Source of the DNA: Xylanibacter ruminicola 23
GTDB taxonomy: Bacteria > Bacteroidota > Bacteroidia > Bacteroidales > Bacteroidaceae
Direction: 5' to 3'
Assembly (NCBI RefSeq): GCF_000025925.1
Contig: NC_014033.1
Location: 390,001 to 422,000 of the forward strand
Length of the DNA stretch: 32,000 bases
The notes under the pieces: generated by a model
Seen by the model: the letters and a program-made list of their open reading frames with translations, nothing else
The model's database searches: none
Told to the model about the DNA's origin: nothing
Shown here: piece after piece, positions 10,633-26,842 of the stretch
How the letters are laid out: each line of letters begins with the position of its first letter
Position numbering within the stretch: position 1 is the first letter of the stretch
Translations under genes and position numbers: made by a program

Positions 10633-10660
10633 TTGTTACTTCTGATTGCAAAAGTAACAA
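10633..10660 (-). promoter_or_regulatory. Hairpin (9-bp stem) embedding a canonical -7 box (TACTTTTG) upstream of the Ntn pair 1 genes
   Basis: ttgttactt / aagtaacaa inverted repeat. The complement of 10649-10656 reads TACTTTTG (TAnnTTTG), about 33 nt upstream of the ATG at 10616. The hairpin could also terminate the upstream sigma gene. Confidence 0.45.
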
Positions 10661-10709
10661 AAATACCTGAAACAACAAAACAGAAAAGAGAAAAAGTACG
10701 TTCTTATAT

Positions 10710-11441
10710 TTACGCCGCCTTTGCGTAGGCCTTCTGCAGTTGGTGCAGAATAGCCTTCTCGCGAAGGTCGGCAATGATGGCCTTCATTCTCCTGATGGGC
10801 AGCCCGTACTTCTTGGCAAGGTCGGAAACGGAATACCCGTCATACACCATCTGTGCCAAGTCCATCATCAGGTTTACATCGCTGGGATAGTACCACTTAC
10901 TTAGGAAAGAGCGCAGCCCCTCCTTGGTTTCCTCAAAGTCGCGAAGCATTTCACTGCTCAATGGTGCAGCGGGTATGCGGTCTATAAGGTCGCGGCTCCA
11001 GTTGTCATCATCTGTATCGTGACAGTCGTCAAGCGACAGACAGGCCTGAAGCCCCAGAAGGAGATTGGGGGTCTTGACGGAACATGTCCAGGTCCTGATG
11101 GCCTCGCTGATGGCTCTGCGGATGTGGTGTACCGCATATGAGCAGAAGTGATTATCGAATGAAGGGTTGTAGCGTGCAGCTGCTATGGTCAGACCGTAGT
11201 TGCCAGCTGCGATGAGTTCCTCGATGGGTACGAAGGGAGTGGCCATGTCGATGGCGCAGGTGAGTACAAAGCGCAGGTTGGCTTCGATGAGCTTGTTGCG
11301 AGCAGTGGTGTCGCCTGCCATGATGCGGCGGCCCAGTTCCTGCTCTTCTTCCATAGTGAGAGGCTGATTGTTCTCGATTTGCTCAAGGTAGACGTTGAAA
11401 CCTTCGGCATGATTCTCAAGGAGGTGATGCATTTTACTCAT
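10710..11441 (-). CDS. Sigma-70 family RNA polymerase sigma factor-like protein (243 aa)
   Basis: Region 1.2/2-like: ...PLTMEEEQELGRRIMAGDTTARNKLIEANLRFVLTCAIDMA...ELIAAGNYGLTIAAARYNPSFDNHFCSYAVHHIRRAISEAI. Region 4-like HTH: GYSVSDLAKKYGLPIRRMKAIIADLREKA. Confidence 0.7.
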   Translation of the reverse strand: MSKMHHLLENHAEGFNVYLEQIENNQPLTMEEEQELGRRIMAGDTTARNKLIEANLRFVLTCAIDMATPFVPIEELIAAGNYGLTIAAARYNPSFDNHFCSYAVHHIRRAISEAIRTWTCSVKTPNLLLGLQACLSLDDCHDTDDDNWSRDLIDRIPAAPLSSEMLRDFEETKEGLRSFLSKWYYPSDVNLMMDLAQMVYDGYSVSDLAKKYGLPIRRMKAIIADLREKAILHQLQKAYAKAA

Positions 11442-11466: not shown

Positions 11467-11504
11467 TCTATAGTATACAGACACCAAAACCCCGAAATCT
11501 AACA
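11467..11504 (-). promoter_or_regulatory. Island promoter-like motif m7 (upstream of the sigma-70-like gene)
   Basis: The minus-strand sequence reads tgttagatttcggggttttggtgtctgtatactataga. TGTTAGAT is exactly 63 nt upstream of the ATG, as in m1 and m6. GTGT at +20 and ATACTATAGA at +28 are identical to m1. A CATTAAAAC leader element follows. Confidence 0.55.
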
Positions 11505-11516
11505 AAGATCTCGGGG
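11486..11516 (-). terminator. Terminator-like hairpin after the peptidase-RyR gene, overlapping motif m7
   Basis: The minus-strand sense reads ccccgagatc-tttgtta-gatttcgggg (10-bp stem with one mismatch) followed by TTTT. It lies 31 nt downstream of the stop codon at 11548. Confidence 0.5.
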
Positions 11517-11547: not shown

Positions 11548-12564
11548 TTATTTATCTTTTGTGATTCTATACCCTAGACGCTGCACAAGTTCGAGAGTGC
11601 CTCGTGCCATAATACGATCGTATTTCTTTTCACTTTCAGTTAGATCGCTGTAGGGAACAAGGTCAGGGTGTTTCTTATGTTTGTCATCGCGTACGTCACC
11701 ATATGTCCACTTATCTTCTATTCTGGCTTTTGCCCAAATGTCATGAGCATTTTCGGCTATGGCTTCCATTAGCTCCTCTAGATCTCCTTCAAGTTTAAAA
11801 CTACTTGCATCAATGGGAGATGGATTGTATTTCCGAACACCTCGCTTTGTTACAGATATAATATAATAATGTGAATCCTGCCATGCAAACATAAAGTTAG
11901 TAGTAGGATGAGTTTCTTCCTGGGCATGCTGTGGGTCGTAGATACGTACCTGTTTGTCGTTGGCAGATAGAACCACTACGGCATGATTAGGTATATTCCG
12001 TTCCGTATTGTTGCTATATAGTTTGTCGGCATTTACAACTGCTATGATTTTACATCCATCATTTAACTCTTTGTTAATGAGATCGTATTCGCAATCGTAG
12101 CGGCGTACTACCGAGAGACGATAAAATTCTGACAGTAGTCTACCGATATGGTGTAGTGGGGTGCCACCAACCTTAAGCCAACCTTTTCCTCGTGATTGTT
12201 CTGTAAGTGATTCTACCGTAGTTTTTATGCCGAATTGTTGTAATAAGTAATGTTCACAACGAACCACGCAATCGTTAGGAGCTTTCATGTCGTGACCATA
12301 CTCTCTGCTTTTGGCCGCCAGCCTGTACATAGGGAGATATGTTGCCGTCATCGAAATGACATTTGCAGGCGATACCTTTTGGGTTCGCTCTTTACTGATG
12401 TGTATATCTGCCAACTTGTTTGATATTGACATCATGATTTCTATTTCTTCCTTTAGGTCGGGATTTTGCTCCGCCGCTAGGAGTATCATTTCGGTTTCTT
12501 CGCCGGTTGCTTTTCCTGCATAAAACCGCGACATCAGTTCGTTTGTTATTCTTTGCTTAGCCAT
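11548..12564 (-). CDS. Fusion protein: anti-sigma-like N-terminal segment + papain-like (C39-like) cysteine peptidase domain + C-terminal RyR domain
   Basis: The start is taken at Met30 of the track ORF (ATG 12562-12564), which gives an 8-nt overlap with the upstream gene rather than 95 nt. N-terminus: MAKQRITNELMSRFYAGKATGEETEMILLAAEQNPDLKEE, the pattern of an anti-sigma N-terminal helix pair. Middle: Cys/His pair in NDCVVRCEHYLL ... IPNHAVVVL ... IYDPQ. C-terminus: AIAENAHDIWAKARIEDKWTYGDVRDDKHKKHPDLVPYSDLTESEKKYDR, matching the RyR (PF02026-type) consensus. Confidence 0.55.
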   Translation of the reverse strand: MAKQRITNELMSRFYAGKATGEETEMILLAAEQNPDLKEEIEIMMSISNKLADIHISKERTQKVSPANVISMTATYLPMYRLAAKSREYGHDMKAPNDCVVRCEHYLLQQFGIKTTVESLTEQSRGKGWLKVGGTPLHHIGRLLSEFYRLSVVRRYDCEYDLINKELNDGCKIIAVVNADKLYSNNTERNIPNHAVVVLSANDKQVRIYDPQHAQEETHPTTNFMFAWQDSHYYIISVTKRGVRKYNPSPIDASSFKLEGDLEELMEAIAENAHDIWAKARIEDKWTYGDVRDDKHKKHPDLVPYSDLTESEKKYDRIMARGTLELVQRLGYRITKDK

Positions 12565-13246
12565 ATATAATCTTTTTTCCGATTTTGAAAAAGAGTTTGG
12601 TGAATGCCTCATTAGCCCTCTTCCTGTCTTGTGATATATTTGTGGAGTCAATGCTTAAATAAGGCATTTCATCTCCCCAGAATTTTCTTCTCATAATTTC
12701 TGCATATTTCTCATTGTCCATCATGTCAACAACCATTCTGATTCTTTCGTTGATATCATTTTTTATCAAATTTTGTTCAGGATTCAGTTCGGGTTTGTTG
12801 TCTGAAACTAGCGAGGGCACTTCTTTTTGAACTCCCCTTGCTATTATTTCATCATGACGTTTATTCTTTTTTCTTTCAGCACTCCTTTGTTCCTGATAAT
12901 GGGCTATGGCCTTTCTTGCTAACCAGATTATGATGCTACCACCCTCAGTTTCGTATTCGCGCAGTTTACTTTTGTCTTTAAATAGAAAGTAGAGGTTATT
13001 AAAGACTTCTGCTTTTACACTATATGCTTCTCTGTTACGAAAGATACTTTCTTGGATGATTGTAACTACTTCGTCAAATTGACCTCCATAGAAAAGCTGG
13101 TTGATGACGTTTATGTCATCATTAAGCAGCCCTTCATAAATCTCACTATCAGATAAATATTCTTTTTTCTCCTCCATGGGGGCAAAGATACGAATTATAT
13201 CTGGAATAAACAAGATTTTGGTAGAATTATTGTGTAACGTTGACAT
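12557..13246 (-). CDS. ECF-type sigma factor-like protein (alternative start at 13177)
   Basis: Region 2-like: ...VKAEVFNNLYFLFKDKSKL...GGSIIIWLARKAIAHYQEQ. Region 4-like: ...IRMVVDMMDNEKYAEIMRRKFWGDEMPYLSI...RKRANEAFTKLF. It sits directly upstream of, and overlaps, an anti-sigma-like gene. The sequence is divergent, so the call is tentative. Confidence 0.4.
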   Translation of the reverse strand: MSTLHNNSTKILFIPDIIRIFAPMEEKKEYLSDSEIYEGLLNDDINVINQLFYGGQFDEVVTIIQESIFRNREAYSVKAEVFNNLYFLFKDKSKLREYETEGGSIIIWLARKAIAHYQEQRSAERKKNKRHDEIIARGVQKEVPSLVSDNKPELNPEQNLIKNDINERIRMVVDMMDNEKYAEIMRRKFWGDEMPYLSIDSTNISQDRKRANEAFTKLFFKIGKKIIYG

Positions 13247-13255: not shown

Positions 13256-13807
13256 TCAGTTGATGCTTTTTAGCTGGGAGTCGATGATGACTTCCAGCCC
13301 GTTGTATACAGCAGGTATGACGGTGCGGCCGCAATACTGGCGAGGGTTGCCGATGGTAAGTTCCTCGCAGCCTATCATTCTGGCAACGACCTTGCGTACA
13401 AATGCCACAGCCATACTCATCATGTGGTCGAAGTCCTTGGCTGTGTATGCTATCATGCGGTCAGGATTAGCCATGAATATAGCGCGATAGAGACGAGCGA
13501 GCTCAGGGAAATCCTTCTCTGGCTTGTTCAGACTGCGACGCTGATACCCCATGGGGTGGAGTAGGGTGTAGATATATATCAGTTTCGAGTAACGGTCCTC
13601 GAACTTGATGACCTCCTCCGTGTTGTCATCCTTCAGTACGATGACGTCGTAGATGTTAGTACCTGAGATGTCCTTGATGTCGCGATGGCGCACCTCAATA
13701 GCGACGGGTTGGGGTGCCCACTCCTTATCTGCTGCCATGTACTCTGCCAGACGCTGCTGCATTTCTTCTACACTCATTTGCTGGATTGCATCTTGAATTT
13801 TGCTCAT
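13256..13807 (-). CDS. Hypothetical protein (183 aa), first gene behind motif m6
   Basis: Intact ORF, with motif m6 exactly 63 nt upstream of its ATG. No family recognised. Confidence 0.6.
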   Translation of the reverse strand: MSKIQDAIQQMSVEEMQQRLAEYMAADKEWAPQPVAIEVRHRDIKDISGTNIYDVIVLKDDNTEEVIKFEDRYSKLIYIYTLLHPMGYQRRSLNKPEKDFPELARLYRAIFMANPDRMIAYTAKDFDHMMSMAVAFVRKVVARMIGCEELTIGNPRQYCGRTVIPAVYNGLEVIIDSQLKSIN

Positions 13808-13954: not shown

Positions 13955-16900
13955 TTAACCATTCTTCATCAATTCTTTCAGTGTTGCAATCTTTTCTTCT
14001 GTTTGATGAATGCTGTCATCTGATTCGTTTTGCTCATGTTTGAGTTTCAAGCACAACTCAAACTCTTCAAGAGCCTCGTCATAACGACCAAGGTCTTGAT
14101 AGACAGATGCTAAAGTGTCTATAATATAAGGCGTTTCAGGGAATGCCGCAACAGCTTTCTCTGCCCAAGGCAGGGCTTCTTCGTATCGTCCTGACAAATG
14201 GAGAGTCCATGCAATTCCATTATATGCTTTTTTATAGCCATTCTCAGCTGATTTCTTATACCATTCAATGGCCTTTTCATAATTTTGTTCTGTACCACAC
14301 CCATTCGCATACATCCAGCCGAGATTATTTTGAGCGACAGAGTAACCTCCTTCTGCGGCTTTATAAATTAAATCAAAGGCTTTCTCGCCATTTTGTTCCA
14401 CACCTTGCCCTAATCTGTATTTTACTCCTAATTGATTCTGAGCTAATACATGGCTTTGTTCAGCAGCCATACGATATAATTCAATCGCTTTATCAAGATT
14501 AGGTTCTATTCCTTTACCATATTCATAGATTAATCCCAAATTATATTGTGCTCTGGCGTCTCCTTGTTCAGCAGCTTTACTATACCATTCTGCTGCAACT
14601 ACGTAATTTTTCTCAACTCCTTTACCTATTTCATACATATGACCAATATAAAACTGTGCATTTGTATCTCCAAGAGTAGCTGCTTTCTCAAGCCATTGGC
14701 TTGCCAAATTGTTATCGCCAATATTTAGATAGAGGTGTCCTAGCTTTCTATATGTTCTAACTGTGTCTGGATGTTCTGCCCCCAGTACTTTTTCTCTTAT
14801 TTCTAATGCTATCATGTAATACTCCAGTGCATGGTCGTAATTGCCGATATCTTTGTATAAGACACCGATGTTGTAATATGAGCTTGCCGTGTCAGGATGA
14901 TCCTTGCCATGGACTTTCTTTCGGATTTCCAAGGCCTGCTTGTAATACTCCAGTGCCTTGTCGTAATTTCCGAGATTATTGTATACGTTGCCAATGTTGT
15001 TATATGCCATAGCTGTATTAGGATGTTCCTTGCCAAGGACTTTCTCGCAGATGTCTAAAGCATGCTTATGACATTCCAGCGCTTTGTCATAATTTCCGAG
15101 ATCATTATATGTGTTACCGATATTGTTATATGAACTTGCCGTGTCAGGATGTTCCTTGTCCCAGACTTTCTCTCGGATATCCAAAGCCTTCTTGTGAAAC
15201 TCCAGTGCATGGTCGTAATTGCCGATATCTTTGTATACGTTGCCGATGTTGTTATATGATCCAGCTGTATCAGAATGCTCCTTGCCCAGAATTTTCTCTC
15301 GAATATATAATGCCTTCTTATGAAACTCCAATGCCTTGTCGTAATTGCCGATCTCAGAGTATACGTTGCCGATGTTGCTATATAAGCGTGCTGTACCAAG
15401 GTGTTCTTTGCCCAGAACTTTCTCAAGAATATTCAAAGCCTGCTTTTGATACTCCAATGCCTTGTTGTAATCGCCGAGTTCTAAGTATACGAGTCCAATG
15501 TTGGTATATGCCATAGCTGTATTAGGATGCTCCTTGCCAAGGACTTTCTCGCAGATTTCTAAAGCATGCTTATGATATTCCAGAGCCTTGTCATAATTGC
15601 CTAGATGGTAGTATCCGATGCCGATGTTGTTATACGAACCGGTTGTGTCAAGGTGGTCCTTGCCCAAGACTTTCTCTCGGATATCCAAAGCCTTCTTATG
15701 AAACTCCAGTGCCTTGTCATAATTTCCGAAATCAAAGTAAACAAGACCGATGTTGTTGTATGAGTCGGCTGTGTCAAGATGTTCCTTGCCTAGAACTTTC
15801 TCTCGGATATCCAAAGCATGCTTGTGATATTCCAAAGCCTTGTCGTAATTGCCGAAATCATAATATACGATACCAATATTGCTATATGTGCGTACCGTGT
15901 CAGGATGTTCCTTACCCAGGATTTTTTCTCGGATATTCAAAGCTTGTTCGAAATACTTCAGTGCTTTGTCGTAATTACCCAAACAATCGTTTACGATACC
16001 GATGTTGTTATATGAGCGGGCTGTGTCAGGATGCACCTTGCCATGGAAATCTTCACACATCTTTATTTGTCTGTTGTGTATTTCTATTGCATTGTCGAAA
16101 ATGGCATGGTCACGAAGGAAACCTGAATATTCCCAAAAGAAATCGATATATTTATCTTGATCATAGTTTATCTCCTGTGCAATTGCATCGGCAAGTTTGT
16201 AGATTTCTTCTGCCTGTTTGATGCGTTCATCAATAAGAATACTAGCATCTGCCATAATAGAAGTTGCCTTGAGTGACAACTCTTTGATAGATATAATAAG
16301 ATTCTGTCGTTTCTGTTCTGTTATCTCCTTGCTTTGTTTATACTCGTTCAATAGGCATTTAGCATCTTCTTCTGCTTCATTGAGAATTGTGTTGGCTTCA
16401 CGTACTAGCCCTTCGTTAAGAGCATCCATTGCTCGACGTATACGATCATTAATCTCTTCTCCTTGTAATTTTGCAACACGTTTCGCTGTATTAAACAATA
16501 GTTCTTGATGTTGGGCAAAATCTTCCTTCAACTTATTGTATTTGTTAAGCTTGGGTTGGAGGTTATCAATCAGCTTTTCTACATCCTTTTTTATATAATT
16601 ATAATCCTCCTGACAGTCTTCGTCATCAGGGGTTTCTTCTAACTTTGCCTTTTTGGTATCTAGTCTTCTTTGTTTCTTTTCAAGTTCAATTTGCATCTCC
16701 TCAATTTCTTTGCGAAGTTCATGAATGTCAGTCTGCATTCTGAGAAAATCTTCGTTAGCTGCAGCAAATTTGAGATTCTCCATTTTGGCAAATGGAAGGC
16801 CATTGATGGTTACAACGCCATCTTCTACCTTCACATTATCCATCTGGCTGCTTTCAACCAACTGCAACTGCATTACAAACTGGAACTGAAGGCTTTCGCG

Positions 16901-17314
16901 ATTGTCATAGCGACACCAGTAGTGCCCCATCTCGTCAAAGAGTCTTTTTTTGAATTCCTTCAGTTCGGGTGTTTCTTCTTCTCCTGGTTTCAAATCTTTG
17001 CAATATGTATATACCTTTGGAGATGATTTTTCTTTGAATTCATCTGAAGCTATATTGAACTCCTCTACAGTAAACTCTCCTGCTTTCTTGTGGAATAAGG
17101 CTAAGAAGATATCACTCTGTCGTACATAATCGTTGTATTCGTCCTGTTTACGTTTATCATTATAGGCAGAATCATAGTCTTCCCATTCAAACAGTTTTAT
17201 TCGAATGCCACGTTTCTCATACATATTATCCAAACGACGAACCAGATTACCGAACGCCATTCGATCGTAATCCATTTCCTCTGATGATGCCAGGAATATC
17301 TTGATAGTCTTCAT
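13955..17314 (-). CDS. Large sensor-like protein: DUF4062/TIR-like N-domain + coiled coil + 10-11 TPR (42-aa, KLC-type) + ~4-5 Sel1 repeats
   Basis: 1119 aa. N-domain: MKTIKIFLASSEEMDYDRMAFGNLV...VRQSDIFLALFHKKAGEFTVEEFNIA...PKVYTY (beta-alpha Rossmannoid pattern like DUF4062). Residues about 170-400 are coiled coil. Then ten near-identical HPDTAxSYNNIGxVYxxLGNYDKALEYHKKALDIREKVLGKE units. Then Sel1 units (GDARAQYNLGLIYEYGKGIEPNLDKAIELYRMAAEQ and similar). Confidence 0.7.
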   Translation of the reverse strand: MKTIKIFLASSEEMDYDRMAFGNLVRRLDNMYEKRGIRIKLFEWEDYDSAYNDKRKQDEYNDYVRQSDIFLALFHKKAGEFTVEEFNIASDEFKEKSSPKVYTYCKDLKPGEEETPELKEFKKRLFDEMGHYWCRYDNRESLQFQFVMQLQLVESSQMDNVKVEDGVVTINGLPFAKMENLKFAAANEDFLRMQTDIHELRKEIEEMQIELEKKQRRLDTKKAKLEETPDDEDCQEDYNYIKKDVEKLIDNLQPKLNKYNKLKEDFAQHQELLFNTAKRVAKLQGEEINDRIRRAMDALNEGLVREANTILNEAEEDAKCLLNEYKQSKEITEQKRQNLIISIKELSLKATSIMADASILIDERIKQAEEIYKLADAIAQEINYDQDKYIDFFWEYSGFLRDHAIFDNAIEIHNRQIKMCEDFHGKVHPDTARSYNNIGIVNDCLGNYDKALKYFEQALNIREKILGKEHPDTVRTYSNIGIVYYDFGNYDKALEYHKHALDIREKVLGKEHLDTADSYNNIGLVYFDFGNYDKALEFHKKALDIREKVLGKDHLDTTGSYNNIGIGYYHLGNYDKALEYHKHALEICEKVLGKEHPNTAMAYTNIGLVYLELGDYNKALEYQKQALNILEKVLGKEHLGTARLYSNIGNVYSEIGNYDKALEFHKKALYIREKILGKEHSDTAGSYNNIGNVYKDIGNYDHALEFHKKALDIREKVWDKEHPDTASSYNNIGNTYNDLGNYDKALECHKHALDICEKVLGKEHPNTAMAYNNIGNVYNNLGNYDKALEYYKQALEIRKKVHGKDHPDTASSYYNIGVLYKDIGNYDHALEYYMIALEIREKVLGAEHPDTVRTYRKLGHLYLNIGDNNLASQWLEKAATLGDTNAQFYIGHMYEIGKGVEKNYVVAAEWYSKAAEQGDARAQYNLGLIYEYGKGIEPNLDKAIELYRMAAEQSHVLAQNQLGVKYRLGQGVEQNGEKAFDLIYKAAEGGYSVAQNNLGWMYANGCGTEQNYEKAIEWYKKSAENGYKKAYNGIAWTLHLSGRYEEALPWAEKAVAAFPETPYIIDTLASVYQDLGRYDEALEEFELCLKLKHEQNESDDSIHQTEEKIATLKELMKNG
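14774..16033 (-). repeat. Coding tandem array of 126-bp TPR units with a 504-bp (4-unit) higher-order repeat
   Basis: Ten consecutive 42-codon units. gccatagctgtattaggatg(t/c)tccttgccaaggactttctcgcagat(g/t)tctaaagcatgcttatga occurs at 15006 and again at 15510, exactly 504 nt apart. Spurious repeat-derived ORFs appear in other frames of the track (for example 15055-15426 and 15109-15516). Confidence 0.85.
17043..17314 (-). repeat. Near-identical 272-bp segment shared with 19547-19818 (5' ends of the two TPR genes)
   Basis: Hand comparison finds 4 mismatches in 272 nt, all synonymous. The offset is exactly 2504 nt. Identity falls sharply 3' of this block. Confidence 0.9.
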
Positions 17315-17319
17315 TTCCT

Positions 17320-19818
17320 TTAGTGCAATTTGGTTTGTATTTCTTTCAGTCTATTTTGACTATCAACTGCTTCTGGATGATCTTCTGGTAGCAAATCGAT
17401 AGCCTCTTTGAATTTATTGCGGGCCATTTCCAAATTTCCCATCAAAGCATAGACGCGTCCTAACCTATTGAGATAGCTGGCTTTTGCAGTCGTGTCTTCT
17501 ATCTTTACTGCAATTTCGTAAGCTTTACTTATATACTCAATGGCTTTCTCGTATAACGTCAAGTCCCTATATTGTGCTCCAACATTGTTATATGCAATAG
17601 CGGTTTTAATTGAATTGTTACCCGAATTGCGAAGATGATAATCTATTTCTTTTTGGCGATATATTAAGGCATTATGATAATCTTCAATTTCACGATAAAT
17701 GGTTCCTATAAGATTATAAGATTTGAGAACATCAGGATGATCCTTTCCTAAAACCTTCTCTTGTATATCCAGGGCCTTCTTATAATGCTCAAGTGCTTTA
17801 TGATAATCACCTTGACTGTCATAAATGCCACCGATACAGTAATTTGTCTTGGCAGTTTCAAGGTGTTCCTTTCCCAATGTCCTTTCTTGGATTTCAAGAG
17901 CCTTAAGGTAATAATGTAAAGCTTTCTGATGGTCACCCATTAAGTCATATGGTACCCCAATATTGTGATAGGATTGAGCTGTATGGGGATGATCTTTTCC
18001 CAATACCTTTTCCCTGATTTTTAAAGCCAAAAGATGATTGTCAAGCCCCTTTTGGTATTCACCAATATCATCATATAGGCACCCAATGTTATTATAAACT
18101 TTTGCCGTTTCTGGATGATTGATTCCTAAGGCCTCTTTATCAACGTTTATCGCTTTGTTATAGTAATCTAGTGCCTTCTGATAATCACCCATGTCATGAT
18201 ATACAATACCGATATTGTTATACAACTTTGCCGTCTCAGGATGATTAATGCCTAAGATCTTTTCATCAACAACCAATGCCTTTAGATGGTATTCCAATGC
18301 TTTTGAGTACTCACCCATATCCTCTAAAAGACACCCAATATTATTGTATGCTGTTGAAGTATAATCATTTTCGGCACCAAGTATTCTTTCATAAATATCA
18401 AGCGCTTTCCTGAAATACTCCATAGCTTTGGGGTAGTCAACCATTTGGTTGTATATTAAACCAATATTGTTGTAGGATGTTGCTGTTTGAAGATCAGCCT
18501 TCCCCAGTACTTCTTCACGTATTTCTTGAGCCCTGAAATGATATTTTAATGCATCTGTGTATTTACCCATGTCATCATAAAGACAGCCAACATTATTGTA
18601 AGCTATTGCTGTGTCGGAGTGAATCTCTCCATATATTTCTTCTGACAACACAATCAGTCGTTTATAGATATCTTCGGCTTGTGAATATCGGGCATATTTC
18701 TTTAGAAAATCTCCATAATCGAGAAGGATCTGGGCGAATTTGTTTTTGTCGTACTCAGCAACTTTTGACATTTCATCAGCTTGAGCATATAGGTTCTCTG
18801 TGCTTTCGATACGTTCCTCAATAGGTATGCTTGCATCTGCCATTATGGTGGAGGTCTTCAATAATAACTCTTCGATGGAGTTGATAACTGCTTGGCGTTT
18901 CAAATCAGTAATCTCTTTACTCTGTTTATAATCCTCTAGATTCCTGCGAGCATCTGCTTCTGCTTCATCTAAAATGATATTTGCCTCTCGAACTTTTCCA
19001 TCGTTGAAAGCATCCATAGCTCTTCGCATGCGCTCGGTTATACGTTCGCCCTGTAATTGGGCAATACGTTTGGCCGTATCGAATAGGATTTGTTGGTACT
19101 CATTAAAATCTTTTTTCAACTGGTTGTAACGGTTGAGTTTCGTTTGTAAGTCATCCTGAAGATCTTCATCATCAGGGAATTTCTCGAGACGCAGACGGGC
19201 TTTTTCTATTTTTGGGGGCAAAGATGCCAGTTCCTCATTCATCTTTATGAATTCCTCATTGCGTGATGCAAATTTTAGTTTACCCATTGATGCAATTGGA
19301 AGACCATTGATGGTTACATTCCCGTCTTCAACTTTCATATCCGTCATTTGGTTGCTTTCAACCAATTGCAGTTGCATGACGAACTGGAACTGGAGACTCT
19401 CGCGATTATCATAGCGGCACCAAAAGTGCCCCATCTCATCAAAGAGCTGTTTCTTAAAATCTTTTAGTTCTGGTGTTTCTTCTTCGCCTGTTTTCAAATC
19501 TTTGCAATAGGTATATACCTTTGGAGATGCTTTTTCTTTGAATTCTTCTGAAGCTATATTGAACTCCTCTACAGTAAACTCTCCTGCTTTCTTGTGGAAT
19601 AAGGCTAAGAAGATATCACTCTGTCGTACATAATCGTTGTATTCGTCCTGTTTACGTTTATCATTATAGGCAGAATCATAGTCTTCCCATTCAAACAGTT
19701 TTATTCGAATACCACGTTTCTCATACATATTATCCAAACGACGAACCAGATTACCAAATGCCATTCGATCGTAATCCATTTCCTCTGATGATGCCAGAAA
19801 TATCTTGATAGTCTTCAT
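17320..19818 (-). CDS. Sensor-like protein: DUF4062/TIR-like N-domain + coiled coil + ~9-10 TPR
   Basis: 832 aa. The first 90 residues are identical to ORF 13955-17314 and similarity continues to about residue 165. Then coiled coil and divergent 42-aa TPR units (...TAIAYNNVGCLYDDMGKYTDALKYHFRAQEIREEVLGK...). Confidence 0.7.
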   Translation of the reverse strand: MKTIKIFLASSEEMDYDRMAFGNLVRRLDNMYEKRGIRIKLFEWEDYDSAYNDKRKQDEYNDYVRQSDIFLALFHKKAGEFTVEEFNIASEEFKEKASPKVYTYCKDLKTGEEETPELKDFKKQLFDEMGHFWCRYDNRESLQFQFVMQLQLVESNQMTDMKVEDGNVTINGLPIASMGKLKFASRNEEFIKMNEELASLPPKIEKARLRLEKFPDDEDLQDDLQTKLNRYNQLKKDFNEYQQILFDTAKRIAQLQGERITERMRRAMDAFNDGKVREANIILDEAEADARRNLEDYKQSKEITDLKRQAVINSIEELLLKTSTIMADASIPIEERIESTENLYAQADEMSKVAEYDKNKFAQILLDYGDFLKKYARYSQAEDIYKRLIVLSEEIYGEIHSDTAIAYNNVGCLYDDMGKYTDALKYHFRAQEIREEVLGKADLQTATSYNNIGLIYNQMVDYPKAMEYFRKALDIYERILGAENDYTSTAYNNIGCLLEDMGEYSKALEYHLKALVVDEKILGINHPETAKLYNNIGIVYHDMGDYQKALDYYNKAINVDKEALGINHPETAKVYNNIGCLYDDIGEYQKGLDNHLLALKIREKVLGKDHPHTAQSYHNIGVPYDLMGDHQKALHYYLKALEIQERTLGKEHLETAKTNYCIGGIYDSQGDYHKALEHYKKALDIQEKVLGKDHPDVLKSYNLIGTIYREIEDYHNALIYRQKEIDYHLRNSGNNSIKTAIAYNNVGAQYRDLTLYEKAIEYISKAYEIAVKIEDTTAKASYLNRLGRVYALMGNLEMARNKFKEAIDLLPEDHPEAVDSQNRLKEIQTKLH
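19547..19818 (-). repeat. Near-identical 272-bp segment shared with 17043-17314
   Basis: See 17043-17314. Confidence 0.9.
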
Positions 19819-19839
19819 AAATGCGAATGTTTTAACGAT

Positions 19840-21165
19840 TTATATTCCGAATTTGCCGTAGCGGCCACCTACATCTTTGTGGTGGTACCAGCTTTTGCGA
19901 TTGAGCCAGGTGAATCCATTGTTCTTTGTGATTACGGCCAGGTCTATGGGGCCACCAACACTTTCTTGTGAGAAGGTCATGTGGCGCTCAAAGCTGGTCA
20001 TGGCGATAAGATTCTCTGCCAAGTTTGCCATGTCCTGAACACTATAGTTGTTGAGTGCCTTCAGCCATTGACGACGTTCTTCTACTAGAATCCGTTTTCC
20101 ATATTGCTTGAACTTGCGAGTCAGATCGTTTAATTTCACCTTGTTGAGTATAGCGTCAATCTCTTCGGATTCTTCCACCGACATACAATCAATGGATAGC
20201 TGTTTTTTTATCTCGTTAAACATATTCTCAGAAATACTACAAACATTTCTGAAGAAATGTGGTTCAACTCCTGTAAGCAGAGCATCCATAATATCTGTCT
20301 GAGCATACGGACAGATTGCAACGGGATTGGCATCGGATATGGCATGTATGTCTTCTGGATCAATATAGTAGCAGATGCGATTGTCAAATCCATGGCTGAC
20401 CATTACCCTAATCATTACTGGATATTCCTCGTCACTGCCGTATCCAGAAAATATAAGGTTGGTTTTGCCATACTCATATCCATATGTCATATATGAGAAA
20501 AAGCCTTCTATAAATAATTCTTTGATTTCAGACAATATGTCTTTTGGATATTCGTTTGAAAACGTGTCGTCTTCCTCAAACAAAGGTGAGTCTAAAACGG
20601 CAGTCTTCCTTGCAAAAAGATTATCAACCATAGAGTCGAGATACTCTTTAAATTGGTTGATGGTGTAATCTTTATACATGGGTAGTGGCGTAAACTCATG
20701 GAAGAATTTGATTCCGGATTCAATGCGCTTGTGAAACGCATCAACAATCTGTTTTTTGTTTGTAACTACTCTCTCCTCGTTTATGTTTATATCTGGTACT
20801 TGACACACTGCATCATCCCAGAATGAATGAAGCATGTTTCTTAGATAATTCCGTTGTATTTCCTCTGGAAAGAATATCTTCTCTGTTAACATATACGAGA
20901 AGAAATCATCGATACAGGCTTGGACGGTCGGGAATTGTATGTTGCCACGTTTCTGCCGATAACGGCGTATAATAACATCCCATGGAGTACAAAGAAAGGA
21001 TGCCGAGCCAACTATCATGACGCTAACGGGGCAGGCGTCAGACATTCTCAACATTTTGTTGGCTGAATTCTCAACCTTTTCGTTACCGTCTCGTGTCATC
21101 GTGACGGCACTATCTGCCGCAATTGCAATACCGCGCTTATTTAAAATGCCTACTACTGCTGTCAT
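19840..21165 (-). CDS. Proteasome beta/HslV-like Ntn (Thr1) hydrolase, predicted active subunit (pair 2)
   Basis: The start is preferred at the ATG 21163-21165, giving MTAVVGILNKRGIAIAADSAVTMTRDGNEKVENSANKMLRM (Thr1, Asp17, conserved Lys), as in ORF 8853-9815. The track start at 21195 would add a 10-aa hydrophobic leader (MFIWIIILTI) and overlap the upstream gene by 19 nt. Also contains FSGYGSDEEYP and the C-terminus ESVGGPIDLAVITKNNGFTWLNRKSWY...GKFGI. Confidence 0.6.
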   Translation of the reverse strand: MTAVVGILNKRGIAIAADSAVTMTRDGNEKVENSANKMLRMSDACPVSVMIVGSASFLCTPWDVIIRRYRQKRGNIQFPTVQACIDDFFSYMLTEKIFFPEEIQRNYLRNMLHSFWDDAVCQVPDININEERVVTNKKQIVDAFHKRIESGIKFFHEFTPLPMYKDYTINQFKEYLDSMVDNLFARKTAVLDSPLFEEDDTFSNEYPKDILSEIKELFIEGFFSYMTYGYEYGKTNLIFSGYGSDEEYPVMIRVMVSHGFDNRICYYIDPEDIHAISDANPVAICPYAQTDIMDALLTGVEPHFFRNVCSISENMFNEIKKQLSIDCMSVEESEEIDAILNKVKLNDLTRKFKQYGKRILVEERRQWLKALNNYSVQDMANLAENLIAMTSFERHMTFSQESVGGPIDLAVITKNNGFTWLNRKSWYHHKDVGGRYGKFGI

Positions 21166-21176
21166 AATTGTCAAAA

Positions 21177-22025
21177 TTATAATCCAAATAAACAATGCTT
21201 GATATAAACCACTCCCTCTGTACGGGTAATTACTGCCAGTTCTCTGGCGTGCGGAAGTTCCCCCTTGCCGCCGGCTTTTAGGTGGTCTAACTGCACTTTT
21301 GCATCAACAAAATCCTCAACAACTTTTACCAGGTCCTCAATATTAAATGAGTCTATCGCCGTGTTGATTCGGTCTAATTGTTTATATGTCTGCTTAAAAG
21401 TGTGTTTTTTAAATTCTTCTTCAGTATCGTATTCGCATAGCCTGTTCCGAACACTCTCTTCAAACTTGGTCTCTTTTACAGCTTCCAAAATTCTATTCTT
21501 AAAGACTTCGATAAGCTCAACTTGCTTATCTATTAGTTTAAGGTGTGCTGCATGAGAGATTCCGTACATGATTGGCTGAGTTTTCTCAAAATGACTTAGT
21601 GTGAAGAAATCAGTCTCATTATCATGATCTATACCTCGCTCTATGTTGAAGTCGCATACCAGTTTGTCTGTTTCCTCGTCAATGTGCACCATAATATCTA
21701 CGGCCGAAGGGAATACGTCATCAGTGCCAAAACCTAAGAATATAATATTTCTGTCATCTTCTGTCATTTTCTTCCAGGCAGGATCGACCTCTACAGAACA
21801 AAGATAATTGCAGAAATCACGGGCATAATCGCCGAATACTTCATGCTTGGCTATTTCGCCCTTTTTTAGATAGGTGTTGATGATGGCATCCCAGGGGATG
21901 GGTGAATACGAATTCACGGCAAGAGCTACTGGTTCCTGCCGTGAAAGTGTATATAAGGTCATGTCGGTGTCCGAGGCACAGGCAATTCCTTCTTTGTTTA
22001 GAAATGCTACGAATGATGTGTTCAT
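21177..22025 (-). CDS. Proteasome-like Ntn-fold paralog, probably non-catalytic partner (pair 2)
   Basis: MNTSFVAFLNKEGIACASDTD aligns with TAVVGILNKRGIAIAADSA. Thr3 and the Asp17 equivalent are kept, but the conserved Lys position appears to be lost. Also contains IIFLGFGTDDVFP and the C-terminus RELAVITRTEGVVYIKH, which matches the pair 1 partner. Confidence 0.5.
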   Translation of the reverse strand: MNTSFVAFLNKEGIACASDTDMTLYTLSRQEPVALAVNSYSPIPWDAIINTYLKKGEIAKHEVFGDYARDFCNYLCSVEVDPAWKKMTEDDRNIIFLGFGTDDVFPSAVDIMVHIDEETDKLVCDFNIERGIDHDNETDFFTLSHFEKTQPIMYGISHAAHLKLIDKQVELIEVFKNRILEAVKETKFEESVRNRLCEYDTEEEFKKHTFKQTYKQLDRINTAIDSFNIEDLVKVVEDFVDAKVQLDHLKAGGKGELPHARELAVITRTEGVVYIKHCLFGL

Positions 22026-22327
22026 GTTAACTTTGATTTCTTGATTTCAAATCCTTGGGATACAATAAACTTCAGGGTGGCGAAGGCCGTATTTCGATCG
22101 TAGGCTTTCTCCTCCTCTGATAGTTCTTCATAGGGAACCAGACATGGAGTCTGTCGTTTCTCGTCGTCACGTACGGGGCCGTATGTCCAGCCTTCGTTCA
22201 TGCGGTTCAGGGCCCATACCTCATGTACATTCTTTGAGATGGCCTCTGCAAGTACTGTTAGTTCTTCTGGCAGTTTCACGTTAGTAGTGTCAACTGGAGC
22301 AGGCTTGTAATCATAGTTTTTAGTCAT
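22022..22327 (-). CDS. Stand-alone RyR domain protein (101 aa)
   Basis: AISKNVHEVWALNRMNEGWTYGPVRDDEKRQTPCLVPYEELSEEEKAYDRNTAFATLKFIVSQGFEI matches the RyR-domain consensus and the C-terminus of ORF 11548-12564. An ATGA overlap couples it to the next gene. Confidence 0.7.
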   Translation of the reverse strand: MTKNYDYKPAPVDTTNVKLPEELTVLAEAISKNVHEVWALNRMNEGWTYGPVRDDEKRQTPCLVPYEELSEEEKAYDRNTAFATLKFIVSQGFEIKKSKLT

Positions 22328-22344: not shown

Positions 22345-22352
22345 CAAAATTA
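22345..22352 (-). promoter_or_regulatory. Canonical -7 box (TAATTTTG on minus strand) for the RyR-Ntn-TPR operon
   Basis: The complement of caaaatta matches TAnnTTTG, about 18 nt upstream of the ATG at 22327. Confidence 0.45.
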
Positions 22353-22561: not shown

Positions 22562-22981
22562 ATGAGCTACACCTATAAATATCCACGTCCGGCAGTTACT
22601 GCCGACATGATTGTTCTGGCAGATAAGTCGGAACCTAAAATACTATTGATTCAACGTAGAGATGAACCCTTCAAAGGCTGTTGGGCATTTCCTGGCGGTT
22701 TTATGGATATGGATGAGACTACTGAACAATGCGCTATTCGCGAACTCAAGGAGGAAACAGGCCTTGAGGTAGGGGAGGTAAAACAAGTAGGCGCCTATTC
22801 ATCAGTCGACCGCGATCCACGTGGTCGCACCATCACTGTGGCTTACGTTGCTCACATACCTCAGGCACTTCCTGTTATGGGGCTCGACGATGCTGCCGAA
22901 GCCAAGTGGTGGCCTATTGATGCACTTCCACCACTGGCCTTCGATCATGCACAGATACTGCAAGATGCTTTAAAGGGATAA
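22562..22981 (+). CDS. NUDIX hydrolase (ADP-ribose pyrophosphatase-like size class)
   Basis: Perfect Nudix box GX5EX7REUXEEXGU: GFMDMDETTEQCAIRELKEETGL. 139 aa. Confidence 0.85.
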   Translation: MSYTYKYPRPAVTADMIVLADKSEPKILLIQRRDEPFKGCWAFPGGFMDMDETTEQCAIRELKEETGLEVGEVKQVGAYSSVDRDPRGRTITVAYVAHIPQALPVMGLDDAAEAKWWPIDALPPLAFDHAQILQDALKG

Positions 22982-23452
22982 TCATTTTTTTATCTTTATG
23001 TGCTCTTTGCTGATAACGCCATCGCGTACCAGTTCGATGATGTCATTTTCGGTCAGGCATCCATGGCAGAACAAGTGGAGGGCAGCTACCCCCCAGTCTA
23101 TAAATGGAGATGCATCGCTGTCATCTGTTTTTAGAGGTGCGCCGAGCGCTGCGTCATCAATGTATATGTTACCATATACTTTTGGTGATGAAGTCCAATC
23201 CTTCTGGCTGGGATTCTCATTCACACCATATAGTGGAATGTCACGTTCCTTAAACCAATCGAGTGCGGGCTGGAGTGTGTCTACGCCTTCAGAATCATGA
23301 CTTCTCATGGTGCTCAACAGTAGTTTATGCCCATTGTTTACCAATTTCCTTAATACTGGTACTGATCCTATATCTTCTCCGACGGCAGGGTAGCGATGCT
23401 TCACTACCGTACCGTCGAAGTCGAGTACTATGTAATAACTGTATTGAATCAT
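22982..23452 (-). CDS. Small HAD-superfamily phosphatase-like protein
   Basis: Motif I DxDxT (VLDFDGTV) and a distal acidic motif (IYIDDAA). 156 aa. It directly abuts the kinase gene stop codon (0-nt gap) and the convergent Nudix stop codon (0-nt gap). Confidence 0.65.
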   Translation of the reverse strand: MIQYSYYIVLDFDGTVVKHRYPAVGEDIGSVPVLRKLVNNGHKLLLSTMRSHDSEGVDTLQPALDWFKERDIPLYGVNENPSQKDWTSSPKVYGNIYIDDAALGAPLKTDDSDASPFIDWGVAALHLFCHGCLTENDIIELVRDGVISKEHIKIKK

Positions 23453-26086
23453 TTAGTCAAGTTTAATGTTCTCACATCCGGGGAAGAGGTTGAGGAAAGC
23501 CTGAGCATTAACAGGCCTTTCGTTTACGAATTGATAAAGGCCTTCAGCTATCGCCTCCTTCATTAGATCAGTACACTCAAGCATATCAAACATTATGTAT
23601 TTATCAGCATCCACGGTAATAGGTTTTGGAAGTTTTCCAGATAACATAGTGAATAATGTCGCAGCCACACTGTAGATGTCTGACTGGGGGCAGAAGTGCT
23701 TCATCGTACCTCTGGTGTTTTCTGGAGCCGAGAATCTGTCGTAGGAGTGTATATCTCCTCTTATTTCTGTGATATCCCCATTATCGTCATATTGCTGTGA
23801 TACTCCAAAGTCGATGAGCACAGCCTCGCCATTCTCGTCTATAACAATATTGTCTGGTTTGATGTCTAGATGTAGAATCCTGTGACTGTGCATAGCATGG
23901 AGAGCTTTACACAATGGGATGACGATCTTGTCTATAATCAGTTTCTCAGATGATGGAACTTGATCGTTGATTATCATGTCTTTGAGCGACTCTCCTGCAT
24001 AGAATTTCATTACGTAATATGTAGTGCCAGTAGCTTCATATTCAAATAATGACTTAACTTCTGTTACATGATTGTCAGCTATGTCGGCCATGCTAAGAAG
24101 GAATACAGGTTCACTACGGAACATTTTTCGCAGCGATTCAAACTCTGCCTCAAGTGTTTCATCGTACATTACTCTGCATGTCTTCTCGTTTTCTCGATAA
24201 CATGTGAGATCCCCAATTCCTCTTGGATAGAACTCCTTAATAGCAACGATTTCCTTCGAACCATTACTGCAATTAAGCATCTCTGCGCGATAGGTATAGC
24301 CAAATGCACCGCAAGAGATATAGTTTAAGATGGTGTATCTCTTGTTGTCATCTGTTAATTCGAATCCAGGAGGCAGGGCATCAGCTCCTTCTTCTTGTAT
24401 TTGTGCAGGTGCTTCAGCATTCTCTACGTCTGGCAGATCAAAATCTTCTACCTCTATATATAATATAAGGTTTAGGTAATCTTCTTCTGTCAATGGTTCT
24501 GGCACCATTTCATTTTGGCCATAGGGATGAAGTTGACGCCTTACATACGATTGGCTTAACTCGTCTGCAAGCCATTGTGGGTTTTCAAATCCATTAAGTG
24601 CAAATGCATAACCATCTTCAAAGAATGCTGATCCTATATCCGCATTGAAAAGTCTGGGCTCAGCAGGTCCTGAAGCATTAACTATTAAGCAGTCTTCGTC
24701 TAGGTAATAAGCCGGATTGAATAAGTTCTTGATAGGTCTTCTTTCAATATTCTCATCCCATCGATTACCATAATAGGTCTCGTTCCGGTTTATATAGGCC
24801 AGAATATGCTCATCTTCATCTATATTGTCAAGGTTATAAACCGCACGTGGTATCTTTGAGACAATATCACCTAACCTAACTTTTCCAAATCCTTTGCGAT
24901 CAGGCAGTTCTGATACGATAAGAGATTTGAGATACCCCTTTTTCTTGGCATTGCTAACCTTGATATATTCTGAGAACATATCATCCTCGATGAGTTCCTG
25001 CATAGATGTATGCTGGGCCAGTGGGTTCGTGCCATCTATAAACCGAATGAGTCCTTTAAAAACAGTGGTTTTCTGGGCATTTATCAATACGGCTACTTCT
25101 CCGAAGGGAAGCAAGGCGATGGTTTCAATCCAGTCGCGCTTCAGGGCTTCCTTAAAGTTTGCCGTCTCTTTCTCGAAGATCTCCTTCGGTAATACCATAC
25201 CTGCATAGCGACCTTTGAAGTCTGGATCATTCAAACATTTGCCTAGGCAAAAATCGAAGGCTGACTCGCCATTGATGAATCCGGTATATGTGGTGATAAC
25301 ATAGTCAATCTGCTTGCCGTTGAGCCATTGAGTAGAATCGCGCTGCAGGAAGTGCTCGTTTGATACCCCCATGCCGTAGTTCAGCAATAGTCCACCTGCA
25401 TAAATCTTGTCATTGGTATCACCATCACCAAAGTAATTGGTTTTTGATTGCAACATCGCACCTGCGATAGGACAACCGGCAAACGGGTTGTACACCAGTC
25501 CTTTGCCATCATATTGTAATAGCGCTTTCAGGGCATGGGCCACTCTCAAACGTGGACGCTTAGGTTGTATACCGGATTTATTCCAAATATGATTGAAGAT
25601 GTTCAGATACCTATCTTTTATATACGAAACTGGTGTGTTAAGCAGGGCTTCGGCTAGAACGAATGTTGCATACTGGCGCTGTGCTTTCTCGCTGGCTTCG
25701 TTGCTCGAATGATGCACCAGACGTCCTATCCTGTGATGATATTCGCGAACCACGTCTCGTTCATCGTTGTTCTTCAGAGTCGTATAAATCTGAAGCAGGC
25801 TGCGGCCAATCTCCATTTCCACTGCAATAGATGTTATTCCATCCTTAATCCATTTATTGACTCTTCGCTTCAGAGTCGCATCAAGATCCACCCACTCATA
25901 GTCGATAATTTCTTTGGGGTTGAGCACACATGCTGCAGTCTCAGGTTTGCTGTTTCCTGTAGCAATTCTTAGTTTTCCATTTGCAGCCAATGCCACCATC
26001 ATCAGCGGCATAAGCGTGTCTGGATTGTAGTGGTAGTAGTTTTCCACTGCATCAAAAAGTCTACTGGAGAATTCCTTTTTTGCCAT
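23453..26086 (-). CDS. Fusion protein: N-terminal N6-methyltransferase-like (apparently degenerate) region + C-terminal Ser/Thr protein kinase
   Basis: Kinase motifs: Gly loop CGAFGYTY, VAIKEF, catalytic loop HRILHLDIKPDNIV, LIDFGVS, FSAPE. The N-terminal ~400 aa contain LVYNPFAGCPIAGA (compare MTase motif I vyDPaCGsG) and WIETIALLPFGEVAV, but no clear NPPY/F motif. Confidence 0.7.
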   Translation of the reverse strand: MAKKEFSSRLFDAVENYYHYNPDTLMPLMMVALAANGKLRIATGNSKPETAACVLNPKEIIDYEWVDLDATLKRRVNKWIKDGITSIAVEMEIGRSLLQIYTTLKNNDERDVVREYHHRIGRLVHHSSNEASEKAQRQYATFVLAEALLNTPVSYIKDRYLNIFNHIWNKSGIQPKRPRLRVAHALKALLQYDGKGLVYNPFAGCPIAGAMLQSKTNYFGDGDTNDKIYAGGLLLNYGMGVSNEHFLQRDSTQWLNGKQIDYVITTYTGFINGESAFDFCLGKCLNDPDFKGRYAGMVLPKEIFEKETANFKEALKRDWIETIALLPFGEVAVLINAQKTTVFKGLIRFIDGTNPLAQHTSMQELIEDDMFSEYIKVSNAKKKGYLKSLIVSELPDRKGFGKVRLGDIVSKIPRAVYNLDNIDEDEHILAYINRNETYYGNRWDENIERRPIKNLFNPAYYLDEDCLIVNASGPAEPRLFNADIGSAFFEDGYAFALNGFENPQWLADELSQSYVRRQLHPYGQNEMVPEPLTEEDYLNLILYIEVEDFDLPDVENAEAPAQIQEEGADALPPGFELTDDNKRYTILNYISCGAFGYTYRAEMLNCSNGSKEIVAIKEFYPRGIGDLTCYRENEKTCRVMYDETLEAEFESLRKMFRSEPVFLLSMADIADNHVTEVKSLFEYEATGTTYYVMKFYAGESLKDMIINDQVPSSEKLIIDKIVIPLCKALHAMHSHRILHLDIKPDNIVIDENGEAVLIDFGVSQQYDDNGDITEIRGDIHSYDRFSAPENTRGTMKHFCPQSDIYSVAATLFTMLSGKLPKPITVDADKYIMFDMLECTDLMKEAIAEGLYQFVNERPVNAQAFLNLFPGCENIKLD

Positions 26087-26802: not shown

Positions 26803-26816
26803 TAGTGCACTTTTTC

Positions 26817-26842
26817 CTCTCAAATACTTGCAAGTTTGAGAG
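26817..26842 (+). terminator. Terminator-like hairpin after the 2H phosphoesterase gene
   Basis: ctctcaaa-tacttgcaag-tttgagag, an 8-bp perfect stem 15 nt after the stop codon. No strong T-tract follows. Confidence 0.45.

Follow-up and report, generated by a model that had tools for sequence, protein, structure and literature searches.

We report that five tightly packed, unannotated genes on the minus strand of the Xylanibacter ruminicola 23 chromosome (contig NC_014033.1) encode a ryanodine receptor (RyR) domain protein, a pair of proteasome-like paralogues and two large repeat proteins with TIR-like N-terminal domains, and that the operon continues on the same strand into a conserved array of at least 12 genes. 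The five genes, here A to E, span 13955-22327 of the window, i.e. the whole stretch of 32,000 nucleotides that was analysed (positions 390,001 to 422,000 of the forward strand); coordinates are those of the window unless a locus number (L) precedes them. We document domain identities, residue conservation, synteny, sensor hypervariability and a defence-island context, and our best and still tentative explanation, in which we have slightly less than even confidence, is that the locus constitutes a chromosomal Thoeris-like, ADP-ribose-centred anti-phage defence island with a new proteasome-type module. Individual parts have precedents from 2026; the combination, that is the proteasome-like pair together with a sigma factor/C39-RyR module, is undescribed in the literature searched. 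The operon comprises the following features:

22345-22352 (-): TAATTTTG, Bacteroidetes-type -7 promoter box, 17 nt upstream of the start codon of A
22022-22327 (-): A, 101 aa, stand-alone RyR/R12 domain protein, candidate binder of an ADP-ribose-derived nucleotide
21177-22025 (-): B, 282 aa, degenerate paralogue of C, predicted non-catalytic partner subunit
19840-21165 (-): C, 441 aa counted from the ATG, proteasome-beta/HslV-like N-terminal nucleophile (Ntn) protein
17320-19818 (-): D, 832 aa, DUF4062/NIR-type TIR-like N-terminal domain (N-domain), helical or putative coiled-coil stalk and array of tetratricopeptide repeats (TPR_12/TPR_10)
13955-17314 (-): E, 1119 aa, paralogue of D with a longer TPR array, four Sel1 repeats and terminal TPRs

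The open reading frames (ORFs) were checked and agree with an initial annotation of this stretch in direction, coordinates and spacing: the stop codon of A and the start codon of B share the ATGA at 22022-22025, and the remaining spacers are 11, 21 and 5 nt. Spacers of 5-21 nt together with the start/stop overlap suggest co-transcription. An alternative TTG start listed for C (21195) would run into B. The -7 box that had been proposed ahead of the operon is also present, and a promoter role can be inferred for it from the known Bacteroides consensus TAnnTTTG, of which the whole window holds 49 copies where 25 are expected from shuffles. Copies of this motif are also found just upstream of B' (10649-10665 (-)), a gene of the downstream array. 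Scans of the window for tRNA genes and Rfam families gave no element. Public annotation of the operon proteins reads "hypothetical protein", "RyR domain-containing protein" or "tetratricopeptide repeat protein" and nothing further. PADLOC, which had been expected to miss the operon, called no system for the five proteins (generic TPR matches for D and E, none for A and B), and neither the Thoeris ThsA/ThsB models nor other PADLOC system models matched. One PADLOC match of C, to AriB (E 6e-4), covers the helical insertion only, is at chance level and was rejected.

C is the predicted catalytic member of the Ntn pair. In a 48-sequence alignment its residues T2, D18, K37 and G404-G405 are invariant and its C-terminal tail is conserved. 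The three best PDB sequence matches of the C-family profile are Thermoplasma proteasome beta chains (E 0.01), with Thr1, Glu17, Lys33 and the SGG motif in register, and the N-terminus of C is in register with that of E. coli HslV. The AlphaFold2 model of C (predicted local distance difference test, pLDDT, 84; predicted template modelling score, pTM, 0.80) has two beta-sheets that are broken by long helical insertions at approximately 62-230 and 290-397. When this model was searched with Foldseek, the best 50 PDB matches were all proteasome beta (including mycobacterial), Anbu or BPH proteins, with a best E-value of 7e-4 and a template modelling (TM) score of ≈0.5 normalised to the target; the proteasome/HslV fold expected for C is borne out by the model.

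B and C are paralogues, as had been proposed (BLASTP E 1e-6; profile-profile probability 99.6%, E 5e-24 over 272 columns). The initial annotation had placed a Thr1/Asp17/Lys33 triad in both Ntn proteins, which stands for C and for its paralogue C' (see below) and fails for B: B is without the ≈15-residue loop that bears Lys33, and opposite Thr1 the members of the B family have T, A, P or S, with one or two residues ahead of it. B has no Pfam, NCBIfam or PADLOC match. Since the Lys33 loop and the conserved Thr are lost, B is probably a degenerate, non-catalytic paralogue, and judging from sequence the pair resembles an active subunit with a dead partner. The tail of the C family, RKSWYHHKDVGGxYGKFG(I/V) (C residues 423-441; 19840-19890 (-)), is highly conserved; it is unstructured in the AlphaFold2 model (pLDDT <50), the B family is without it, and it may be a docking or gating motif.

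D and E were recognised from the start as paralogues with TPR arrays, to which Sel1 repeats are added in E, and Pfam agrees, with nine TPR_12 stretches in D, 12 in E and four Sel1 repeats in E. Overall identity between the two is 55%, rising to about 95% over residues 1-170, which cover the N-domain. Within the N-domain family 25 of 35 members match DUF4062 (best E 1e-5) and eight of 35 match TIR_2; D itself aligns with Pfam DUF4062 (PF13271) over aa 5-94 (E 4e-4). An AlphaFold2 model of the N-domain (pLDDT 82) is a five-strand alpha/beta sandwich in which T82, E84 and E85, at least 90% conserved in the family, lie at the start of helix 80-96 after strand 69-74. In characterised DUF4062/NIR proteins the catalytic Glu follows strand C (E97, E98, E103 or E108), and Glu84/Glu85 of D are candidates for the catalytic Glu, their equivalence to the published TIR-type NADase residue resting on position in the model. 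The DUF4062/TIR-like character that had been suggested for the N-domain is supported at the level of the family; for D by itself it is qualified by points that are taken up below. The TPR array of E includes ten tandem 126-nt (42-aa) units at 14702-16135 (-), about 70% identical as DNA, a possible substrate for repeat expansion and contraction.

The stand-alone RyR domain that had been assigned to A is confirmed (Pfam PF02026, E 1e-34, 119 bits, cut-off 27.4), and among PDB structures A matches 3NRT, 4N05 and 6UAG, each called "putative ryanodine receptor", with E-values near 1e-32 (2e-32 for 3NRT and 6UAG). Phage RyR-domain proteins bind or cleave 2'cADPR, 3'cADPR and cADPR (forms of cyclic ADP-ribose) via a pocket of His, Trp, His/Lys and Asp (PMC13232231; 10.64898/2026.06.04.730250). 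In an alignment of 33 stand-alone and fused RyR copies the His..Trp and the Asp (YD) of this pocket are invariant; most fused copies also keep the second His, for which the stand-alone ones invariably have Thr. Because RyR domains bind ADP-ribose (ADPR)-derived nucleotides, the model can be made more specific than a "sensor plus protease".

Past E the same strand carries eight further features:

13256-13807 (-): p183, conserved 183-aa gene, always after the variable sensor slot
12557-13246 (-): p229, 229 aa, divergent sigma factor of the extracytoplasmic function (ECF) type
11548-12564 (-): C39-like cysteine peptidase fused to a second RyR domain (C39-RyR), overlapping the end of p229
11490-11516 (-): strong terminator-like hairpin (11 bp, 6 GC pairs, T-run) between the C39-RyR gene and SIG
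10710-11441 (-): SIG, sigma-70-like factor (regions 1.2 and 2), heading a second module
9831-10616 (-): B', 261 aa, second copy of the predicted non-catalytic subunit, 25% identical to B
8853-9815 (-): C', 320 aa, second Thr1 Ntn subunit, beginning MTAIVGILNKRGIAIAADSAVT, with one helical insertion missing
8271-8840 (-): S-adenosylmethionine (SAM) lyase family gene, closing the conserved array

The assignment of p229 comes from family-level scans (TIGR02937 sigma70-ECF in eight of ten members, best E 9e-11; FliA and SigL as the top PDB matches of the profile); the window copy by itself gave no match. BLASTP detected no similarity between p229 and the sigma-70-like gene. The C39-RyR protein has a clear RyR domain (E 6e-33, 113 bits) and a Peptidase_C39 match below the Pfam cut-off (E 8e-4), with invariant Cys (DCVVRCE), His (PNHAVV) and RyR His/Trp/Asp. 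Its N-terminal segment is conserved and, given this and the overlap of its gene with that of the sigma factor, may be an anti-sigma element; no Pfam anti-sigma family matched the protein at E up to 0.5. C' shares 34-50% identity with C, has the same MT..AADSAVT start and aligns with Pfam Proteasome over aa 2-47 (E 0.008, 16.3 bits, cut-off 22.4). The triad holds for C', and B', like B, is without it. The five genes had been taken for the functional unit, which is not upheld: the conserved array is larger and includes a second RyR domain with C39, two sigma-like factors and a second Ntn pair. In many relatives a gene of the opposite strand, for an SprT-like metallopeptidase of 141 aa, separates the sigma-70-like gene from B' (L097:18395-18820 (-), L153:19762-20187 (-)); the window has no such gene.

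For the synteny analysis we sampled the neighbourhoods of C homologues, 80 genome loci, 55 metagenome loci found via the B family and loci found through the RyR protein. The gene set recurs in many Bacteroidales loci, so that the synteny expected by the initial annotation is found, in the order AAA, DUF2130, RyR, B, C, variable slot, p183, ECF sigma, C39-RyR, sigma-70-like, B', C' and SAM lyase. Association was counted for loci that carry a type-1 B+C pair and for which six or more neighbours were scored. A TIR-like gene is present within five genes in 23 of these 26 loci and a RyR gene is near the pair in 20, compared with none of 66 loci for either when the C family occurs without B. The TIR-like genes belong to the N-domain family (19), to canonical DUF4062-NACHT-TPR proteins (9) or to TIR and Macro-TIR proteins (7). 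The association is kept through rearrangement (L001, L006, L104, L119, L120), with the RyR gene ahead of B or behind C. In L001 the place of the TPR protein after C is taken by a TIR_2-WD40 protein, and in L006 and L120 the genes behind C are kinase, TIR and RyR genes.

The slot after C is hypervariable. In relatives it holds only N-domain-coiled-coil-TPR or canonical DUF4062-NACHT-TPR proteins. Specifically, in four strains with an identical RyR protein, B is 98-99%, C 94-99% and DUF2130 98-100% identical, while the protein after C is only 32-65% identical (N-domain 84-97%, TPR part 18-40%); their slots contain one or two genes of 744-1282 aa, all of the N-domain family or DUF4062-NACHT. Metagenome contigs of a Prevotellaceae lineage have the hypervariable slot between near-identical flanks at about 12530-20100 of L150-L154. 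The lineage is widely sampled, one RyR protein sequence being indexed in 377 blocks of the sequence collection. A slot with near-identical flanks in gut and rumen Prevotellaceae amounts to a natural experiment on sensor diversification.

At four loci (L105:6513-8522, L124, L005 and L002:13242-15323) the Ntn pair is followed by a membrane protein of 669-693 aa with an RCK/TrkA-like domain, where otherwise a TPR sensor would stand immediately after C; in two of the four the membrane protein gene comes directly after a RyR gene. Possibly this protein serves as another kind of effector. It was also considered as a RyR-gated channel, a notion that we gave up because Pfam shows an RCK domain and no RyR domain in it.

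Outside the Bacteroidales B+C clade a C-family gene of ≈430 codons stands without B. A protein search gave 1387 homologues of C, all of them nameless and free of Pfam domains, and species-representative genomes contain at least 473 loci of the family. The family spans many phyla as well as phages, satellites and plasmids, and C matches phrog_5990 ("hypothetical protein") with E 1e-71. In 55 of 75 loci without B (among L010-L084, e.g. L016:1236-2480 and the next ORF) an ORF of ≈55-80 aa lies within a few bases after the C gene, and many of these small ORFs share the C-terminal helix motif EISEIVSDKLI..VK.QFE. This two-gene cassette is present in many bacterial phyla, in some archaea and on plasmids, in prophages as a moron-like gene and at the ends of Streptococcus phage satellites. 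Phage records with a C-family gene are:

BK068103.1, 25469-26905: C-family gene
OM816834.1, 18364-19614: C-family gene
MK448317.1, 9274-10653: C-family gene

No B-family member was found when IMG/VR viral contigs were scanned. In a Porphyromonas phage the C-family gene lies between the portal and neck genes; a reading of the family as capsid or prohead protein was rejected, because that phage has its annotated major capsid protein and prohead protease at other places, the gene is a lone moron in other phages, and the fold is proteasome-like. The C family is large, widely spread and wholly unannotated, so even a partial functional assignment would annotate many genes.

The surroundings of the operon fit the defence-island context that had been read from the sequence. 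On its right side the following genes were identified:

22562-22981 (+): NUDIX hydrolase, divergent from the operon
22982-26086 (-): pair upstream of the operon, an 877-aa protein (23453-26086) with a C-terminal Ser/Thr kinase domain and the following 156-aa protein
26254-28213 (+): LigT/2H phosphoesterase, microbial PARG and NADAR, ADP-ribose-processing genes

The kinase domain of the 877-aa protein, which has an N-terminal region of ≈560 aa besides, matches the PD-T4-6 and mad6 defence models; its gene and that of the 156-aa protein move together and come directly after C in L006 and L120-L122. A sigma-70-like gene (28221-28937 (+)), paralogous to SIG (33% identity over regions 1.2-2), comes after the LigT-PARG-NADAR genes, and a GmrSD/HEC-06-like type IV restriction gene is found at 30454-31998. 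Directly past the right edge of the window (L144:11479-21106) come a ThsB-like Macro-TIR gene and a PDC-M33 candidate defence system with all of A, B and C. RmuC, MatE and RND efflux genes lie on the left side. No integrase, conjugation or phage structural genes were seen within 10 kb on either side of the locus.

For the defence island that we tentatively favour, the following mechanism can be proposed. The TPR/Sel1 array of D or E would sense an invader component, the putative coiled-coil stalk would drive assembly, and the DUF4062/NIR-type N-domain would then cleave nicotinamide adenine dinucleotide (NAD+). A would bind an ADP-ribose-derived product of this cleavage. B and C would form a hetero-oligomeric proteasome-like protease in which C is catalytic, its Thr being bared by removal of the Met as in HslV, and the ligand-bound RyR protein would switch or tune this protease as a second effector or amplifier. 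Through C39-RyR the same nucleotide would lead to the ECF sigma factor being freed by proteolysis, and the sigma factor would then induce the second module (sigma-70-like factor, B', C' and SAM lyase). We infer the coupling among the parts, the direction of the signalling and the targets of the proteases. The mechanism taken to its full extent, i.e. RyR/R12 domains as cellular receptors for ADP-ribose-derived immune nucleotides made by DUF4062/NIR sensors, which switch on both a Thr-Ntn protease with one active and one dead subunit and a cysteine-peptidase anti-sigma factor that releases an ECF sigma factor, appears doubtful to us as a complete statement.

Several findings weigh against the proposed mechanism. 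C lies below every curated proteasome threshold and has no Pfam match (e.g. 14 bits against the NCBIfam archaeal proteasome beta model, cut-off 224), which is why we treat it as distantly related to PF00227 and as standing outside that family. D likewise scores under the Pfam DUF4062 cut-off (20.9 versus 24.7 bits); the Foldseek search with the N-domain model gave generic flavodoxin-like (ArsH), Ras and lumazine synthase matches and no TIR protein in the top 50, and being non-specific was set aside as evidence for TIR. Nor did hhalign of the N-domain family against one canonical DUF4062 protein give a significant match (probability 2%). Published DUF4062/NIR proteins are self-sufficient NAD+-depleting effectors and not signal generators, and since single-gene DUF4062 NADases have been described D and E may do without the protease or any other partner. 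The stand-alone RyR protein has Thr at the position of the phosphate-binding His of RyDEP, and every characterised prokaryote-associated RyR protein is a phage anti-defence factor (PMC13232231; 10.64898/2026.06.04.730250). The C family occurs without a TIR-like or RyR gene in 66 of 66 distant loci, which indicates that the protease is not intrinsically nucleotide-controlled. There are B+C pairs without a nearby sensor (L005, L125) and a locus with RyR and sensor without a type-1 B+C pair (L142). Finally, many of the 26 loci scored are related rumen and gut Prevotellaceae islands, so the counts overstate their independence. The earlier "sensor plus protease" reading keeps its domain identities and its context, probably loses the second Thr1 protease (B), loses the limit of five genes and may lose the need of D and E for a protease.

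The main rival explanation is that the genes are independent neighbours in a hotspot: D and E would be single-gene NIR/DUF4062 NADases inserted in a conserved frame, RyR-B-C and sigma/C39-RyR would be a separate system or part of that frame, and the tight spacing would reflect compaction of the island. We consider this unlikely on balance, though it has to be taken seriously, for single DUF4062 proteins with auxiliary domains protect alone (10.64898/2026.09.04.749371; 10.64898/2026.05.01.722283), the slot after C acts as a hotspot with conserved flanks, and the loci just named, in which pair and sensor occur apart, as well as the 66 distant loci free of TIR-like genes, speak for it too. Against it, the slot is filled exclusively with TIR-like/DUF4062 repeat proteins and never with other kinds of defence gene, and the association of the genes survives the changes of gene order listed above. 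The 5-21-nt spacers and the start/stop overlap point to co-transcription, and the known ligands of RyR domains are products of TIR-type enzymes.

Two further explanations fit a chromosomal, defence-rich and NLR-containing context less well. The locus could be counter-defence of a mobile element, with the RyR proteins as sponges or glycosidases for Thoeris cADPR, with SAM lyase, PARG, NADAR, NUDIX and LigT neutralising host restriction, ADP-ribosylation and nucleotide signals, and with the Ntn and C39 proteases degrading host immune proteins. The SAM lyase family is a classical phage anti-restriction function, C-family genes occupy moron-like positions in phages and are found in phage satellites and on plasmids, and all characterised non-animal RyR proteins are phage anti-Thoeris factors (PMC13232231; 10.64898/2026.06.04.730250). 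We nevertheless regard counter-defence as improbable: the locus is chromosomal and lies between the efflux/MatE/RmuC genes and further defence genes, without integrase, conjugation or phage structural genes within the 10 kb inspected on each side; IMG/VR viral contigs gave no B-family gene; the array in relatives contains canonical DUF4062-NACHT-TPR (Avs/NLR-like) defence genes; and one RyR domain is built into a peptidase beside a sigma gene, which is a signalling architecture and not that of a sponge. Housekeeping or stress proteolysis, by a proteasome-like protease with TPR adaptors and dedicated sigma factors for quality control or a developmental or stress programme, would draw on parts common in ordinary regulation (TPR/Sel1 proteins, sigma/anti-sigma pairs) and on the housekeeping role of HslV-like proteases, and is very improbable in view of the patchy, strain-variable distribution, the hypervariable sensors, the C-family genes on phages, satellites and plasmids, the defence-gene neighbours and the membership of the N-domain in a TIR-like NADase family.

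If the parts of the proposed defence island do cooperate, bacterial immunity would count a proteasome-like protease among its effectors, RyR, a domain so far met only in counter-defence by phages and in calcium channels of animals, would acquire a signalling function on the host side, and the island would exemplify immune signalling wired to sigma-factor release. Should the receptor role hold as well, a bacterial sensor of immune second messengers, and not phage sponges alone, would be suggested as the ancestor of the nucleotide-binding R12 domain of animal ryanodine receptors.

The initial annotation knew of no named defence system with this gene content, and none was found in the literature searched; the same searches gave no description of the gene set, of a proteasome-like protease in phage defence or of a host-side RyR sensor. 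Individual parts can nevertheless be compared with known systems. C resembles the MEROPS T1 family (HslV, 20S proteasome beta, Anbu and BPH) in its predicted Ntn alpha-beta-beta-alpha sandwich, its Asp17/Lys33 equivalents and the GG motif ahead of the last strands; its Met-Thr N-terminus is as in HslV, and the predicted pairing with a probably non-catalytic paralogue recalls the alpha/beta rings of proteasomes. It differs from T1 members in ≈250 residues of helical insertions and the conserved C-terminal tail, in scores under the curated model thresholds and in its accessory, mobile distribution. No HslU, PAN or Mpa-type ATPase gene is present in the window, and some relatives have an unrelated AAA gene two genes upstream.

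The C39-RyR module may be set beside CalpL-CalpT-CalpS of type III CRISPR, in which a protease activated by cyclic tetraadenylate (cA4) reportedly cleaves an anti-sigma factor and so frees an ECF-like sigma factor. Both would tie a nucleotide-sensor domain to a protease beside an ECF-type sigma gene in an immune locus. Here, however, sensor, protease and putative anti-sigma segment are in one polypeptide, the sensor domain is RyR and not SAVED, the protease is papain-like C39 and not Lon-like, and the N-terminal segment matches no known anti-sigma family. RyDEP and RyR Tad, the phage anti-Thoeris proteins, are small dimer-sized proteins with the same PF02026 domain and the same His..Trp and Asp pocket; in contrast to them the genes described here are chromosomal and head an operon containing TIR-like enzymes, one copy is fused to a cysteine peptidase beside a sigma factor, and the phosphate-binding His is replaced by Thr in the stand-alone copy.

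According to three preprints from 2026, DUF4062 (now called NIR) is a TIR-like defence NADase and supplies the effector of Avs2, Vulcan (NIR + HEAT), Vesta, Swarozyc and Evangelion (10.64898/2026.09.04.749371; 10.64898/2026.05.01.722283; 10.64898/2026.06.25.731849). D and E share with Vulcan, Swarozyc, Evangelion and NIR-Avs2 an N-terminal DUF4062-type TIR-like domain in which helix C begins with a conserved Glu, a beta-hairpin and helical stalk that lead to a helical-repeat sensor, a hypervariable C-terminal sensor region and a place in a defence island. They are distinguished from Vulcan by TPR_12/TPR_10 and Sel1 repeats after a long helical linker, where Vulcan has NIR fused directly to HEAT, and from the DUF4062/NIR single-gene systems as a group by the absence of a STAND NTPase, by standing in a multi-gene array, with RyR, proteasome-like and sigma partners that the descriptions of those systems do not mention (the words "proteasome" and "RyR" are absent from the two papers searched for them), and by a window protein under the Pfam cut-off.

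A close parallel to the favoured reading is type IV Thoeris, in which TIR signalling reaches a caspase-like protease via a cADPR-type signal (10.1101/2024.10.24.620036). The protease here is predicted to be a Thr-Ntn proteasome-like heteromer and not caspase-like, RyR/R12 stands in for SLOG or Macro as the putative receptor domain, the TIR-like domain belongs to the DUF4062 type, for which only NAD+ depletion has been shown so far, and no PADLOC Thoeris model fits the operon. Common to both is a TIR-superfamily enzyme, here a putative one, that is encoded in a defence island together with a protease and a small domain of a kind known to bind TIR-derived ADPR nucleotides.

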